Positions 1-56,689 of a DNA stretch of 64,000 nucleotides are shown here, one piece after another. This DNA is from Eledone cirrhosa. Taxonomy: Eukaryota. The notes under the pieces are model-generated. The model was not told the origin of the DNA. It made no database searches and worked only from the letters and a program-made list of their open reading frames with translations. How positions within the stretch are numbered: the first letter of the stretch is position 1; each line of letters opens with the position of its first letter. The position numbers and the translations under genes were made by a program. Location: positions 63,674,001-63,738,000 of the forward strand of contig OZ024747.1 in NCBI GenBank assembly GCA_964016885.1, read 5' to 3'.

Positions 1-160
1 CAGAGCTTAGGCCGTTTCAACGGCTATTTCTGGAGTCCAGAAATAGCCGTTGAAACGGCCTGAGCTCTGCCATTGGGGTCTTGAACATTTTCCTATTACC
101 CACTCTGAGTACTCTGATGTATTATGGTCCATCTGGTTCCTTACCACACTTCCTTCATTA
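1..160. mobile_element. Hairpin element family A (putative Penelope-like terminus), truncated by window edge
   Basis: Positions 1-69 form a near-perfect palindrome. The tail resembles copies at 17934 and 33237 and ends in (TA)n. Confidence 0.7.
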
Positions 161-182
161 TATATATATATATATAGTGTGG

Positions 183-3510: not shown

Positions 3511-3652
3511 GAGGACATGTCTTTCACCTAGTGGACTTTCAACCTGAGTGAGGTTGGGCTGAGAACGGAAGTGCATGTGAGCTCATATACACTTCCGTTC
3601 TCAGCACAACCTCACTCAGGTTGAAAATTTGCTAGGTGAAACACACATCCTC
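3511..3652. repeat. 142-bp imperfect palindrome centred on GAGCTC with a decayed hammerhead-like motif in each arm
   Basis: Arms pair from gagga (3511) to tcctc (3652). Each arm contains a ttgaaa..ctaggtgaaa motif resembling the 17851 hammerhead. Confidence 0.75.
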
Positions 3653-7404: not shown

Positions 7405-7717
7405 AGAACAAAACATGGTTAAAAGAGTTCCATGTATTTTATTATGCGCATTTCAAAAACAAATATCATCATGCAATAATATTTGTGTTTTCATCAGATA
7501 AAACAGGAAGACATGATATGAAGGTTAAAAAACACTTGTGGATAGTGCAGTTGATTTAAAACTGCACTATCCACAAGTGTTTTTTAACCCTCATATCATG
7601 TCTTCCTGTTTTACCTGATGAAAACACAAATATTATTGCATGATGATGTTTGTTTTTGAAATGCGCATAATAAAATACATGGAACTCTTTTAACCATCTT
7701 TTGTTCTTATATATTAT
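7395..7717. repeat. Long palindrome, ~158-bp arms with a 7-nt loop
   Basis: Mirrored ORFs 7359(+) and 7768(-) give nearly identical peptides. Centre is gtgcagtt-gatttaa-aactgcac. Confidence 0.93.
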
Positions 7718-16239: not shown

Positions 16240-17101
16240 ATATATTAGAAAGATCGAGTATCGAAAAATCGGCGCACGAGTTAACGAAAAACGAAATCCG
16301 ATATGAGCGGCAGAGGGCTCAATAATTCAGATGAATCAGAGCTATAACTATCGTTAAAATACCGTCACATATAGAACAAGTCTACAATCAACCATACGAT
16401 TTAAAATCGATAAAGGAAGATTCGGGCCAAACAGATAAAAAATATCAATAAAACAATACGTCAATAATTTAAATGAATGTAAAATCATACCCGGACCCAC
16501 TAGAAAGGTGTTAAATCTAGCTTCATGGGTTTCTGTAAATCCTTAGACAGTACTCTATCAGCTCACATATAAATATAAAAGCCTACTAGAATAAGTGGAA
16601 TGGAGTTTACGTTGTCAACGAGTTTTATCCTGGCGGCAAAGGAGTCAACTAGCGGTGAAAAACGCACATGGCATTAGACAAGGGAGATGACCCCTATATC
16701 CGCGAAAATAATTCGAGTGAATGTGGAAATACACATATCGAATTAGAGTGCTCAATAGACATGTTAAAATAAAACAAAAGCTATTCATCACTCAATAGAA
16801 TCGACAAAATATGAGCAATAAAATTAACTGGTGGATAGCTATGTCCAGAGCTAAATATATTAGAAAGATCGAGTATCGAAAAATCGGCGCACGAGTTAAC
16901 GAAAAACGAAATCCGATATGAGCGGCAGAGGGCTCAATAATTCAGATGAATCAGAGCTATAACTATCGTTAAAATACCGTCACATATAGAACAAGTCTAC
17001 AATCAACCATACGATTTAAAATCGATAAAGGAAGATTCGGGCCAAACAGATAAAAAATATCAATAAAACAATACGTCAATAATTTAAATGAATGTAAAAT
17101 C
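16240..17101. mobile_element. Direct-repeat element with 247-bp apparently identical terminal repeats (615-bp period) inside (TA)n
   Basis: 16240-16486 matches 16855-17101. Confidence 0.85.
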
Positions 17102-17756: not shown

Positions 17757-17918
17757 TAGAAGTGGTTATACAACAGTTAGTTCACCATACCGAGAACAAT
17801 TGTTTCACCTTAGCGGATCCTCAGCTCGTAATCCGAGCTCGCATTACGAGCTGAGGATCCGCTAAGGTGAAACAATTGTTCTCGGTATGGTGAACTAACT
17901 GTTGTGTAACCACTTCTA
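17757..17918. repeat. 162-bp palindrome centred on GAGCTC carrying a hammerhead motif on each strand
   Basis: Arms pair almost perfectly. Mirrored ORFs YTTVSSPYREQLFHLSGSSARN occur on both strands. Confidence 0.92.
17847..17884 (+). ncRNA. Minimal type I hammerhead ribozyme motif (mirror copy on the - strand at ~17791-17828)
   Basis: cgag-CTGAGGA-tccgctaaggt-GAAAC-aatt-GTT-ctcg: stem I cgag/ctcg, short stem II, palindromic stem III. Confidence 0.72.
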
Positions 17919-17933
17919 TATATCATATATATA

Positions 17934-18115
17934 TGAAAAAGTATGACCCTGACGGCAGAGCTCAAGCCGTTTCGATGGCTATTTCTCTGGAGAAATAGCC
18001 GTCGAAACGGCTTGAGCTCTGCTGTCGGGGTCATCATTTTTCCTATTTCCCACTCTACTACCCTAAGTATTGAGTACTCTGGGGCGTTATGGTCCATCTT
18101 ACCACAATTCCTTTG

Positions 18116-18118
<3 letters not shown>
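17934..18118. mobile_element. Hairpin element family A
   Basis: ~110-bp hairpin (gacggcagagctcaagccgtttcg...cgaaacggcttgagctctgctgtc) plus a conserved tail, with (TA)n on both sides. Confidence 0.8.
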
Positions 18119-18158
<40 letters not shown>

Positions 18159-18642: not shown

Positions 18643-18799
18643 AAATTGAAAAAGTGGAGAATAACATGGTCAACAGTACAAAATAGGAGGTTTATTTACA
18701 GTCTAATTTTTAGACAACTTTATCAGTGAAACAATTGTTAGACTGTAAATAAATCTCCTTTTTTGTACTGTTAACCATGTTATTCTCCACTTTTTCAAT
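18643..18799. repeat. Inverted repeat, ~60-bp arms, containing a hammerhead 3' half (GAAACAATTGTT)
   Basis: attgaaaaagtggagaataacatgg...acagtctaa pairs with ttagactgt...ccatgttattctccactttttcaat. Confidence 0.8.
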
Positions 18800-32960: not shown

Positions 32961-33236
32961 AAGATATAGATGGAAAAACAGGCGGAAAAAGAATTATGAA
33001 CAATGATAGATATGTGCATGTGTGTATATATATATTCATATATATGATGGAGATAAGAATTATATAAAATACAGATAATGCACTTAATAAAGTAAACCTA
33101 CATATAATATTTCTCAGCTATTGCTTGTTAAAATGGAAAATCCATCAAAATCATGAAATTATGCTCTCACTCTGCTATATCATAAAACAGAATTAGTTTA
33201 TCTTAAATATTATTTGCTCAAATAATATATATATAT

Positions 33237-33464
33237 AGGAAAAAAGTAATACCCCGACGGCAGAGCTTAAGCCGTTTCAACATGTGGGAACTAGAAACTC
33301 TGATTTAACCTTTTAAATACCAAAGCCACATGAAATAGCCTTCGAAACGGCTTGAGCTCTGCCGTCGGGGTCATACTTTTTCCTATTTCCCACTCTACTA
33401 CCCTAAGTATTGAGTACTGTGGTGCGTTATGGTCCATCTGTTTCCTTACCACAATTCCTTTGTT
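33237..33464. mobile_element. Hairpin element family A with a 56-bp captured insert
   Basis: Same arms and tail as 17934. The centre is replaced by sequence matching 38014-38069. Confidence 0.85.
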
Positions 33465-33625
33465 ATATATATATTTATATATATATAGTAATAATAATAA
33501 ATTTGAAGACTAAAATCCAAAGAGGGCTCGATAAGGATAAATATATATCAAATATATAAGAACCGTAGAGCAAATATTTATTTTAATATTATTTTATATT
33601 ATTTTAATATATATATATATATATA

Positions 33626-36600
33626 TATTTCTTTAGGTTTGTTTGTTCACCACTGGATAGAACTGGTCATTCCGTATGGTCAATCCTGGTTTAATATTGT
33701 GAAGAGTACTCAACGCAGTGCAGTTCACCCATCTTCATTTGTGTAGTTGGTGGTGCGAATACGGAGTTGTTAATTATAAATAAAATAAAATAACAGGAGG
33801 CTGGACTGGTGTAAATCCTTGAAATGTTTATTATACTATGATCATTTCAATGACCGGGTTCCATATGAATCCGGTGATATCATCAGGTATTGGAATATAA
33901 CAAAGGAATATGTAAAAAACCATGGGTCCGAAAAATCAGAGACAGAGACAAAGAAGACGACTGACCAACTAGCTTCTCGGCCAGTCGCCCTCAAAGAGTT
34001 GGCAACTGAATCTACTAATGAATATCTGGTGAGGGGGCAAAGGCTTATAATGCACTACCACCACTCCGTCAAAGAAAAAGGGGAAGAAAGAAAAGGAGAA
34101 AGAAGTCAGTGTAAGGGTCATACCACATTCATGCTAGAAAATGCCGCGAAAAAAATGCTACTTCAAAGAATCTATAATGGGTGTCTGAATGATCTAATGT
34201 GTGAACCGAAGATTGGAACGTTAAACTTATGTTGCAAGTTATAGGATGAAATTAAATTAAATTGCAAAATGATAAATTGAAAAATAGGTTATTAGAGAAT
34301 TAAAGATTAAGGTAGCGAGATTTATTTATTTAATGAACTTACGGAGAGAGTCTTATACGAAAATTTTTTTATCTCGATAACATATTAGGATGGGATATAG
34401 AGTAAAGATTTCGATTGGGAGTCCCAGCCAGCACCCCCCCCGCCCCCACCATGAGTCAACCAGCCTCGAGTGGTATCGTCCAGCGAAAGAAATGGAAATT
34501 AATTTTTCCGAGTACTCCAGGGATGTAGCTACCTCAGGCCCCGGGAGTGCTAGCGGGAACTCCACAATTTCTACAGGCCATCGTCTATACCAAGCGAATA
34601 CTATTAAATCACACATGAGGGGTTTATTTACGTGCCAGTAGAGGCATGATACAGCTAATAGTTATGCCTAAACCTGGAGTTTATAGGTACAAGTATAATG
34701 CGGTGACCAAAACAGGCGGCACGGTGGGACCGGGGCAAAGCAAGCCGCTCCGAGTAATTTCGTTTACCGAAAGAGGAGAAATTTATTTTCCCGAGCACTC
34801 AAGGAAGGCTGAACTTTCCGAGTGCCCAGCGCGCAGCCGGGAAAAGCCACCACACAAGTCGAAGGTAGCAACCCAATGAAAAGTGCAAATAGACCAAAAT
34901 TATTTTAAAGTCCCAGTTAGTCCGGGTTATAAGTAGTGTGGTTCTTAGTTGGGTAGGGGGCTATGAAAGGTGCATAGTGATCTGAGTAAGGAAACTTACA
35001 AAAAAAAAAATAAAAGCAGCATACAAAGATAAAATACCAATATAAAGATAGAATACATTGATAAAAATACATTAATAAAATTATAAAAAAATAATAAAAT
35101 AATAAAAAAATATATATTAATGGAATAATAAAAAAATTAAAAAAAAAATTAATAAAGGTAAATAACAATCAATATAGATCAAGTTGTAGTAAGATAATAC
35201 AAGTTGTACATATAGATATAGATATAGAGGATTGAGGAGATGGAATGGTAACAGGTTGTACCTAGTGTAAAGTTCGGGTCTCCGAATTCAGTGCGAGTCA
35301 CAAAAAGTCCTGAGGTATAGAGTAGAGAATTCAGTCAATACAATACATGTTTTGGTATAATACGTAGAGTTTTGTCGGTATCGGAATCATCCCAACAAGG
35401 AAGTAGTAACAGGTGGCAAAAGATAAGGCGCAGAGCAGCCAAAATCCGAAGAAGTAGATCAGTTAATCCCATGCTGGCAATAGCTGTACACTGAAGTCAG
35501 TGCCGCTGTTCAATATTACATTTTGAAGTGCTCAACATTATAGGAGCATTATTTCTTTAGGTTTGTTGGTTCACCACTGGATAGAACTGGTCATTCCGTA
35601 TGGTCAATCCTGGTGTAATTTTGTGAAGAGTACTCAACACAGTGCAGTTCACCCATCTTCGTTTGTGTAGTTGGTGGTGCGAATACAGAGTTAATTATAA
35701 ATAAAATAAAATGTGTGGTGGCTTTTCTTAGCTGCACACTGGGCACTCAGAAAGTTCAGCCTTCCTTGAGTGCTTGGAAAAATAAATTTCTCCTCTTTCG
35801 GTAAACGAAATTACTCGGAGCAGCTTGCTTTTCCCCAGTCCCACCGTGCTGCCTATTTTGGTCACCGCATTATACTTGTACCTATAAACTCCAGGTTTGG
35901 GCATAACTATTAGCTGTATCATGCCTCTACTGGCACGTAAATAAACACCTCATGTGTGATTTAATAGTATTCTTTTGGTATAGACGATGGCCTGTAGAAA
36001 TTGTGGAGTTCCCGCTAGCGCTCCTAGGGCCTGAGGTAGCTACATTCCTGGAGTACTCGGAAAAATTAATCTCCATTTTTTTCGTTGGATGATACCACTC
36101 GAGACTGGCTGACTCATGGTGGGGGGGTGGGGGTGCTGGCTGGGACTCCCAATCGAAATCTTTACTCTATATCCCATCCTAATATGTTATCGAGATAAAA
36201 TAATTTTCGTATAAGACCCGTCCCACCCTTGCAAGCAGGGAAAAGCGGACGTAAAATGATGATGATGATAATGATGATGACTCCCTCCGTAAGTTCATTA
36301 AATAAATAAATCTCGCTACCTTAATCTTTAATTCTCTAATAACCTATTTTTCAATTTATCATTTTGCAATTTAATATTTTTAAGTTAATTTAATTTCATC
36401 CTATAACTCGCAACATAAGTTTAACGTTCCAATCTTCAGTTCACACATTAGATCATTCAGACACCCATTATAGATTCTTTGAAGTAGCATTTTTTTCACG
36501 GCATTTTCTAGCATGAATGTGGTATGACCCTTACACTGACTTCTTTCTCTCTTTCTTTCTTCCCCTTTTTCTTTGACGGAGTGGTGGTAGTGCATTATAA

Positions 36601-36870
36601 GCCTTCACCCTCTCACCAGATATTCATTAGTAGATTCAGTTGCCACCACTTTGAGGGCGACTGGCCGAGAAGCTAGTTGGTCAGTCGTCCTCTTTGTCTC
36701 TGTCTCTGATTTTTCGGACCCATGGTTTTTTACATATTCCTTTGTTATATTCCAATACCTGATGATATCACCGGATTCATATGGAACCCGGTCATTGAAA
36801 TGATCATAGTATAATAAACCTTTCAAGGATTTACACCAGTCCAGCCTCCCGTTTTTTTATTTTATTTATA
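33626..36870. mobile_element. Unclassified rearranged element A-B-C-A'-inverted B'
   Basis: Direct repeat 33626-33790 vs 35550-35712 and inverted repeat ~33778-34856 vs 35712-36870. Flanked by (TA)n. Diverged partial copy at 51470-52000. Confidence 0.85.
36211..36280 (+). mobile_element. Ultra-short 5'-truncated RTE insertion
   Basis: Matches the RTE 3' end at 59009-59075 and is absent from the homologous arm at ~34350. Confidence 0.88.
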
Positions 36871-36879
36871 TATATATAT

Positions 36880-37188
36880 ATTATTTAATAAACAACATAA
36901 GGCAATTATTCTATTTACCAGTGGTTTCTTAAAAGCAAAAGGTTTTGCTTTCAATCCTCAGAATGAAAAAATCCTGGTCTGTTTATTGAATTTGGATTTT
37001 AAAATCTGGTTTTTAAAATCCAAATTCAATAAACAGACCAGGATTTGGATTTTAAAATTTGGTTTTTAAAATCCAAATTCAATAAACAGACCAGAATTTT
37101 TTCATTCTGAGGATTGAAAGCAAAACCTTTTGCTTTTAAGAAACCACTGGTAAATGGAATAATTGCCTTATGTTGTTTATTAAATAAT
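36880..37188. repeat. Nested palindrome with an internal ~52-bp duplication and a hammerhead in each arm
   Basis: 36880-36970 pairs with 37098-37188. Inner palindrome at 36971-37043. Confidence 0.9.
37101..37159 (+). ncRNA. Type I hammerhead ribozyme motif, intact core (mirror copy at 36908-36967 on -)
   Basis: catt-CTGAGGA-ttgaaagcaaaa cc ttttgcttttaa-GAAAC-cactg-GTA-aatg. All core nucleotides and stems I, II and III are present. Confidence 0.8.
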
Positions 37189-38544
37189 AATTAAGCTCTG
37201 TTACCTACATAGAGCACTCTTTTTTCCTGGACTTTTCCTACGGAATTACTTCACATATATATATATATATATATATCATTATCATCATCATCGTTTAATG
37301 TCCATTTTCCATGCTAGCATGGGTTATATATATATATCATCATCATGATATATATATCATCATCATCATCTTTTACATCCACTTACCTTTGCTTGCAAAT
37401 ATATATATATATATATAGAGAGAGAGGGGGGGGGGGATATTGATTGGATTGTGGCCCTTATCATTCACGAAACACTCGAGAATCTTTTCCTTTGATATGC
37501 ATTTTCTGAAGAAGCTGGGTAAATCTATATAGGTGTGAGCTTTAAGAACAACAACGATATAGCAAGAGGTATAGTGCTGTGAGGGAGTTTTATTTAGTAA
37601 CTAATTAATTGAACTATGAATGTTAAATTGAGAAAATAACACACAAAATAAGACTCATTTATTCTCTCTTATTTCATGGATTGAAGCAATGAGGAGGAAA
37701 AAATCTCAATATTTATATATATTTGTTAAGTACTGAATATATCAGGGAGATTCATATTTGCTTCTTTATAAATTCTCAATAGGACTATTAGCATTTTCTA
37801 TGATGGAAGATAATTATTTCTTATAAAAAAGCCTAAGGGTTTTAATGGAGAAATAATAAGAACTTATTAAGAAGTTTGTCCTTACCAAAGATTTTCAGCT
37901 ACCGAAACATTTGAAACAAGGTATTGATAACTTTTCAGTTGTTACTGATAATAGTCTGTGTTAGTAACCTGTGTTATGGAGAAATATTAGTGGGAAATTT
38001 ATGACTTGGAATTACATTTGGGAACTAGAAACTCTGATTTAACCTTTTCAATACCAAAGCCACATGAAACAATCTTTGATTTTGTGATAAACAGCTGTTA
38101 TTTTAGTGTCTATATTTATCTAAAAACCTTCAGTCATAATTTTGTATAAGAAATTTTGTTATGTTTCAAATAACAACTTAATGTAAATGTTAGTTATGTT
38201 ACTGAATCTCTCCAGCTTCTTTATTTTCAAAATGCATCCTTCAAAATTTCTATACTTACCAAAATTCGCCAACACTACACCTAGTATTACTCCTCCATAC
38301 ACACACTTGCATGTATGTGTGTGAATGTGTCTGTGTATATCATGATTCATACACTGTTCATTTTCCTGACATTTGTACATTATTCTATGTACTATACATG
38401 CATATTTGATGAGTTGTAGTGCACCTGAGCACTGCACACAATAATTTTTATCATAATTTGAAAATCATAGGAACTGTTTTTCATAAGAAATGTGACAATG
38501 AAAATGTTAATTTCTCGTGTGATGTTGGTTTTATTAGCTGTCAT

Positions 38545-54888: not shown

Positions 54889-55276
54889 ACATTAACATAT
54901 ATTAGATGAAGGACACCACCTATGATTTTTAAATAATTTTGAAAATAATCAAGTACTTGAAGGAATTAAGTAATGTATTTTTCTCATTATTAAGCTCGTG
55001 TTTGAACTTTAATAAGTTTCTTACATAAAATTATGAAGGAAGTGTTTTAGATAAATATAAACACTTTAATTTTTTATTGTTATATACCTAATAAAAGAGA
55101 TTGTCTATGATTTGCAAGTAATTAAAAAAACAATAAAGAATTTCAAGGAATTTATATTATAATTAACGTTCTCATTATTTAGCTGGTGTTTGTAACTTAA
55201 CAAAGATTCTTACATAAAATTATGATGGAAAATTTTAAAATAGATATCAATATTTTGAAATTTGAAACAAAAGTGT

Positions 55277-55334
55277 CTGAAACTGCCCTCATTCTATGAT
55301 ACAATTTTGCATCATAGAATGAGGGCAGTTTCAG
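55277..55334. repeat. Perfect 24-bp hairpin at a MITE end
   Basis: ctgaaactgccctcattctatgat-acaattttgc-atcatagaatgagggcagtttcag. Confidence 0.85.
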
Positions 55335-55355
55335 GTTCTTTGGTCACAAAAGAGT

Positions 55356-55581: not shown

Positions 55582-56689
55582 ACTGAAATTAGTTGTTGAG
55601 CTAATCTAAATGTGGACATTTTAAAGTAAGAAGTTTTATATCATAGAACCAGTAGTGGAGGGTGGGTCTTTCTCATGTGCATTGTTATGAAATAAATTAA
55701 ATTCAACCTTATGGGGATTATAATAGAACAAATTATTTTAGAAACACACCAAAATAAATTTTAATAATTTATTACAATAATATAGCAATGGGAATCATAG
55801 CAGGTACAGCTGTTTCTCTCTTGTTGTCTGTGCTTGACCAACACACTTCAGTTTTCCACAGCTTATTTCACCTAGCTCTAAATAGGTATCATAAACACAA
55901 CCCTGCTCAGGCAAACATTATTGTATCTCTTACAGGGTCGATAAAATAAAGTACCAGTAATGCACTGGGTAATTGCTGGCCTTGTGCCTAAAGTAGAAAC
56001 AATTATTGTATCTCTTAGTCTACAATGCTACATTCAATTCCTTCTATGGTGCAAATGGTATTTGTGATATATCAATGGTGAAGCTAGTACAGTAGATAGA
56101 TCTCTTATTTGCTATCATACAGGTTGAATCAATTTGTGCATCAACCCTTAAGTTAAAGAAATCTATATTTTTAACTTTTGGAAAGGTTTAGCTATTATTA
56201 CACCACAAAATGTTAGTATTAGAGTTAACACAGTATATTTTAAATGGAGGCATATACAATATGTTTATGTATAATAAATACACATAGTCTCAATGTGAGT
56301 ATTTTAAGCTGTTGTCAATTCACAGCTACCTCAATAGATGTTTGAGAAGGCTGAATACATGTGAGTAAGCATCACTTATGATGGATTAATGATCCTGAAA
56401 TTTGTATATTTAGCATTCTAACATAGTTACTGTGGTAGCTGTGATAGGGTCACAATGTAAACTAATTACAATGGCACTATAAATGTTTATTATATATAAA
56501 CATATTTTAATATTGTATATGCTTCCATATAATCCTCTACTATAAAATATATAACAAACACTAATTCTATTAGAATGTGGTTGGTATTTTGAAAGGCATC
56601 CAACAGTAAAAATCAAGCCTAGAAATGCTGTATGTCAATATGGCAACTCTGTGAATCCCACAGGAGTTACAGGTTTATACATACATAAT

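Follow-up and report, generated by a model that had tools for sequence, protein, structure and literature searches.

In a 64,000-nt window of the Eledone cirrhosa genome (contig OZ024747.1, positions 63,674,001 to 63,738,000 of the forward strand), a small palindromic element carries at its apex 56 nt (33280-33335) that closely match DNA 4.7 kb downstream. We hold it probable (roughly 0.65) that these bases are a copy of that DNA, written as a microhomology-primed repair patch while two inferred cDNA halves of the element were being joined. The match itself had been claimed in an earlier note on this DNA, and it was borne out by self-BLAST of the window, in which insert and donor (38014-38069, plus strand) agree at 54 of 56 positions, in the same orientation and without gaps (E 3.5e-19), the difference being two substitutions. 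The junction microhomologies given there, AC at the left and GAAA at the right, were both read directly as overlaps between the insert and the adjoining arms. Besides the insert, the donor had no further match in the window, and a search of the 3.0-Gb genome with positions 33276-33340 as DNA query (very common words being skipped by the search) returned two candidates, the insert and the donor, and nothing else. The 56-mer as a dispersed repeat or as a regular part of a subfamily is thus ruled out by its two genomic places and by the absence of a similar apex among 38 copies of one tail variant.

The focal copy and its surroundings

Direct reading, self-BLAST and comparison of arms and copies resolved the focal copy into a series of adjoining parts. 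A (TA)-rich target on the left (33220-33237) is followed by the short inverted arm of a Penelope-like stub (33236-33281, minus strand), which we interpret as a cDNA from the proximal start of reverse transcription (RT) and which stops ~15 nt before its usual end, sharing its last 2 nt (AC) with the insert. The 56-nt templated filler (plus strand) then leads into the long arm (33332-33385, element sense strand, plus), whose first 4 nt (GAAA) are common to the insert and which carries the 3' half of a hammerhead-like motif (a putative ribozyme). An 80-nt tail, present on one arm only and continuing into the element open reading frame (ORF) in longer copies, occupies 33386-33465 (plus) and is bordered by the (TA)n target on the right (33465-33490). 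Two further copies of the same family (family A) in the window have the short centre that the earlier note described: one with a plain seam at 17931-18119 (plus), and one cut by the window start at 1-161 (plus), in which a G precedes AGTCCAG on the long arm.

The left junction of the insert is spanned by a single contig from read run X3 (33255-33309; 55 nt, depth 4, one other letter), which has just 25 letters on the arm side, under the advised 31, and the donor occurs with its own continuous flanks in read contigs separate from the one over the insert junction. No contig in the read runs bridged the right junction, positions 33085-33204 had zero depth in all four runs (holes that can arise from the filter), and RAD-seq run X4 gave no coverage of the insert at 95% likeness. 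Runs X1-X3 represent one sample, which may be the source of the assembly. Palindromes are hard to sequence, and the unbridged right junction and the left flank without depth leave some room for an assembly chimera or a chance match. We consider this very improbable, given the two substitutions that separate insert from donor, the X3 contig across the left junction, and the same pattern at 19 other loci (see below).

The window also holds palindromes of other sequence. A 162-nt palindrome of another family (17757-17918) adjoins the 17931 copy; its CUGANGA...GAAA core looks canonical and its short centre derives from the palindrome itself, and it is likely another Penelope-type stub. More palindromes of unrelated sequence lie at 3511-3652, 7405-7707, 18647-18797, 36882-37186 (the centre of which is internally duplicated), 55261-55350 and 56240-56532. 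Two 247-bp direct repeats, 100% identical (16240-16486 and 16855-17101), flank ~370 bp of unique sequence at a TA-rich site and might represent a small and very recent element bounded by terminal repeats. Between insert and donor, blocks of ~90% identity (33629-34856 and 35553-36849) are related by inverted and direct pieces.

Family A and the seam between its arms

All parts of the focal copy belong to a family A layout of (TA)n, short inverted arm, variable centre, long arm, 80-nt tail and (TA)n, in which the outer ends are fixed within (TA)n, the arms stand head-to-head and the tail is one-sided. Exact anchors gave a lower bound of at least 15,864 copies: at least 15,000 with a gap of 8-57 nt, 519 at 73-160 nt, and, for two tail variants with a gap of ~58-72 nt, 38 and 307. 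Most copies are stubs of ~190 nt, and in a frameshifted copy (L119/L205) the tail runs straight into the reading frame, making family A continuous with a single RT ORF of less than 3 kb, a feature of the Hydra clade. A related copy (L204) holds an uninterrupted open frame of 691 aa at 823-2895, lacking the N-terminus. A Pfam search of the element ORF returned no families; read by eye, the translation contains RWR (an RWK-type motif), the DKG to DKT change, YRDD and a CxCX5C linker, followed in its C-terminal part by a GIY-YIG-like motif, CxxC and CxH. Since the ORF motifs, the (TA)n insertion, the inverted truncated copy and the one-sided tail, all present in family A, match the features listed for the Hydra clade (RWK-type and DKT motifs, CxCX5C linker, C-terminal GIY-YIG, (TA)n targets, an inverted 5'-truncated copy and a one-sided tail; PMC8557442), family A is, judged by its sequence, the 5' stub of a Hydra-clade Penelope-like retroelement. 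Compared with the accessible account of that clade, family A has a longer tail (80 versus 30-40 nt), consists mostly of ~190-nt stubs and has a non-canonical core in its hammerhead-like motif, the layout being recognised by eye (CUGAGAA...GAAA...GUC), with a predicted fold that lacks it (z -1.6) and no hammerhead hit in Rfam. The accessible parts of the same paper make no mention of seam fillers and term the origin of the inverted repeats in Penelope-like elements unresolved.

In 54 of 56 unselected copies (a set that includes two artefacts spanning neighbouring elements) the seam was distinct. The short arm reached further in 17 of the 56, the long arm in 25, and the two were equal in 14; in three copies of another set the arms overlapped barely or not at all. 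Arm ends cluster just inside AGTCCAG, which in our view resembles an initiator motif. In long natural copies the base before AGTCCAG was T or C in 17 of 17. An A or G precedes it on both arms at 189 places, and of the first 50 of these (read by eye), 45 had G on both arms, four on one and one on neither, although short fill templated by the arms could also account for some of the both-arm Gs. An extra G is expected when an RNA cap is copied, and the tendency of both arms to end at one point, often with this non-genomic G, fits two separate cDNAs that extend to the capped RNA end. We infer that each stub consists of two cDNAs that were primed at the two sides of a single cut and then met 3' end to 3' end; in vitro, a Penelope protein cleaves and extends both strands, with start sites at either border of the tail, according to the available text of PMC11167929.

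The apex is accordingly likely to be a seam joining two cDNAs, made at each insertion. A simple fold-back of one cDNA is disfavoured, because either arm may be the longer and the G occurs on both. The earlier note had pictured a break at the hairpin apex repaired by templated insertion (polymerase theta-like), or a template switch of the RT onto local DNA or pre-mRNA; templated insertion at the apex is supported, whereas a later break in a finished hairpin gives way to a seam that was probably made with the insertion itself.

Capture of flanking DNA at other seams

Forty foreign-looking seams were picked by hand, a selection that favoured long fillers, and their fillers were compared, together with the focal one, with flanks of 5 kb on each side. 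A filler was assigned to its own flank when the match had at least 40 bits and at least 90% identity and was better than at all 40 other loci. By this rule 21 of 41 passed, and after removal of one tandem duplicate (L177), 20 of 41 fillers remained assigned to their own flanks (19 of 40 without the focal copy). The matched tracts are 21-170 nt long with 91.5-100% identity. Their donors, at distances of 343-4730 bp (median 875), are spread over either side and either orientation (6, 6, 4, 4); the focal donor is the farthest, with the others searched to 5 kb only. Set aside among the 40 were L177 (a duplicate of the whole element), L182 (a false left anchor), and L175 and L184 (element upstream sequence). 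Own-flank matches of 94-100% at L174, L179, L190 and L194 failed the control, their donors being repeats or including element sequence, and L196 (18 nt, 100%, 143 bp away) fell below the score cut of this test and passed the looser rule of the unselected set.

In that unselected set, 116 long-gap copies were taken in listing order and 27 non-element stretches of at least 20 nt were tested; in five of the 116 the best match lay within the copy's own 1.5-kb flanks, where 0.23 would be expected. Three more, the focal copy included, have donors beyond 1.5 kb, and for six fillers the best hit was a single foreign locus. Extrapolated at ~7% to the 864 long-gap copies, we estimate roughly 55-60 capture events, or ~0.4% of the counted copies, a figure that misses short captures.

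Flanking DNA is one source of filler among several. Most long seams consist of arm-derived repeats, A/T runs or longer arms, four fillers (L165, L170, L185 and L200) are element tail or ORF sequence, and one belongs to a dispersed repeat. One capture occurred in trans, the filler L189 (5047-4984, contig C5) matching only contig C3 (L260, ~1500-1585) with an 18-nt gap. For nine unmapped loci, extending the flanks to 15 kb on each side yielded no convincing donor. The seams of L190 and L194 join a flank copy to a second short arm, as if synthesis had crossed the element's own junction. The seam of L177 (G000:C1:426095292 and 426097770, tandem duplicates 2.5 kb apart), for which no donor was found, holds two CCCTAA units, which we take to be telomere-like, in an A-rich filler.

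The earlier note had argued that if other copies also carried local fragments, the element would be acquiring short spacer-like pieces of host sequence. That local fragments occur elsewhere holds, as 19 of the 40 other fillers and five of 116 unselected copies show, and the spacer-like acquisition is unsupported, the focal filler and a second tested one having been found only at their own site and donor. A stub acting as a mobile unit that acquires host "spacers" and passes them on would accord with captures recurring at one position in tens of copies, and non-autonomous Penelope-type elements are known (PMC8557442). It is nevertheless extremely improbable: both locally mapped fillers searched genome-wide are confined to insert and donor, all-against-all comparison of the 41 fillers turned up no shared host filler, the only sequences in common being simple repeats, parts of the element and one widespread dispersed repeat, and each locally mapped donor lies near its own copy. 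This last point indicates that the seam is remade each time and that the patch is a dead end. In CRISPR spacer acquisition short foreign pieces are placed at a fixed position in a repeat, a likeness that the seams share. They differ in having no array, no fixed length and no integrase, and in drawing on neighbouring DNA, with no sign of inheritance; none of the CRISPR-like traits looked for (inherited pieces, stacked arrays, constant length) was seen among the tested fillers.

Filling of the seam and comparable insertions

In the sequence of events that we favour, the element would cut (TA)n and one cDNA would be primed from each broken end; the two starts would lie close to the RNA 5' end with 80 nt between them, and both cDNAs would run toward the capped end. 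As the resulting 3' ends would be of the same sense and share little complementarity, trimming would be followed by extension on any template at hand, in most cases their own arms and in others the element ORF or flanking DNA. In the focal copy one end may have been primed on the donor, copied for ~50 nt, released and annealed to the other end through AC and GAAA; priming by either end is possible, the short arm meeting the filler via AC and the long arm via GAAA. The favoured template would be DNA of a flank that had been resected or opened locally, with the element RT or a host repair polymerase as the copying enzyme, and the patch would not be transmitted to new copies.

The junctions of the mapped fillers bear on this sequence. 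Among 40 donor junctions, 22 are direct and 18 contain 1-18 extra bases, and overlaps of at least 2 nt occur at 15 of the 22 direct ones (null 0.18, p = 3e-7). The extra bases are often copied from the arms, and several are mirror-symmetric, which could also come from opened hairpin ends. Further points weigh against this account: tracts of 21-170 nt and distances in the kb range exceed the 3-30 bp insertions of polymerase theta (PMC7165422, in its available text), some fillers are non-local (from another contig, from a dispersed repeat, or with no donor within 15 kb), the element ORF has no Pfam family, and reads support the focal junction thinly.

The overlaps at both ends and the decay with distance fit DNA and RNA templates equally well, and capture at insertion might have involved a jump of the RT onto nascent RNA of the surrounding locus. 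The kb distances suit a nascent transcript, which would also explain the four ORF or tail fillers and the one from another contig, and the accessible text of PMC10191854 records such a case for L1, a single event of co-insertion of local pre-mRNA. Among 38 differences in the inserts, A>G/T>C (9) showed no excess over G>A/C>T (8), a comparison of low power that presumes editing in the host, and visual inspection of the window ORFs revealed no recognisable host exon; on balance we regard an RNA template as unlikely.

The timing of the repair patch was approached through divergence. Outside CpG, the arms differ from each other at 28 of 959 positions (2.9%) and the inserts from their donors at 30 of 1197 (2.5%; p = 0.59), which is consistent with capture at insertion without proving it, as an early post-insertion break or homogenised arms would look alike and equal divergence leaves the timing unfixed. 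A clean palindrome might instead have been inserted and later cleaved at a central cruciform, with repair by deletions and templated fill. Such a history predicts asymmetry both ways and mirror-symmetric extra bases, and long perfect palindromes in mice and cells do rearrange centrally (PMC8701086). The consulted part of that review, however, gives 93% deletions and describes inclusion of spacers as uncommon, fillers here are often bounded by intact ends, the extra G being retained on either side, the inserts are no younger than the arms, and seams are already unique in copies whose arms differ at no more than one position, making a later central break quite unlikely in our estimation.

We compared the seam fillers with other insertions of copied DNA, as described in the available parts of the sources. 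At L1 integration, non-element genomic DNA of <250 bp was copied in at 22 of ~3,600 insertions, and pairing of the cDNA with nearby DNA has been proposed (bioRxiv 10.1101/2024.08.27.596794). This rate is close to the ~0.4% estimated here, whereas the L1 templates are typically within 15 bp and the events somatic, against 0.3-4.7 kb (median 0.88 kb) in an assembled genome; the capture site here, unlike that of L1, is the seam of a two-armed Penelope-like stub. Templated insertions by polymerase theta (TINS) measure 3-30 bp, with first tracts rarely >10 bp (PMC7165422), and resemble the seams in that nearby sequence is copied from microhomology primers in direct or inverted orientation, in several rounds and in an AT-rich context. 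The junction microhomology of TINS is found here (15 of 22 direct junctions with at least 2 nt), whereas their short length and a template near the break are not (21-170 nt at 343-4730 bp, long fillers being favoured by selection), and short self-templated seams fit TINS better than the flank-derived tracts do. At R2 5' junctions the cDNA snaps back onto itself or onto nearby DNA with extra-template synthesis (PMC11371274). What the R2 and L1 cases have in common with the seams is further synthesis from a cDNA 3' end before it is joined, with the cDNA itself, DNA close by or a second RNA as template; they differ in that one cDNA is joined to target DNA, where here two would meet head to head.

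Our literature search, with most subscription journals outside its scope, yielded no publication describing the capture of flanking DNA at Penelope seams (the supplements to PMC8557442 may list family A), and the accessible parts of PMC11702581, PMC13174262, bioRxiv 10.64898/2026.07.22.740005 and PMC13282606 do not describe it. The seam fillers are a real and recurrent variant of templated insertion at retrotransposon junctions, set apart by donors in the kb range and by their place between two inferred cDNAs. More speculatively, the telomerase-related RT of the Hydra Penelope elements may serve as its own end-joining polymerase, jumping onto DNA up to several kb away and duplicating 20-170 nt of the neighbourhood, so that tens to hundreds of seams would map the opening of DNA at germline integration sites; this we hold possible, though doubtful. 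Capture at the seam is a small source of local duplications and not a memory system. The seams form a large natural record of the last joining step in which templates can be traced, and their kb-range donors, unlike those of L1 and polymerase theta, open three points to testing: the identity of the filling polymerase, the nature of the template (DNA or RNA) and the extent to which the flank is exposed.
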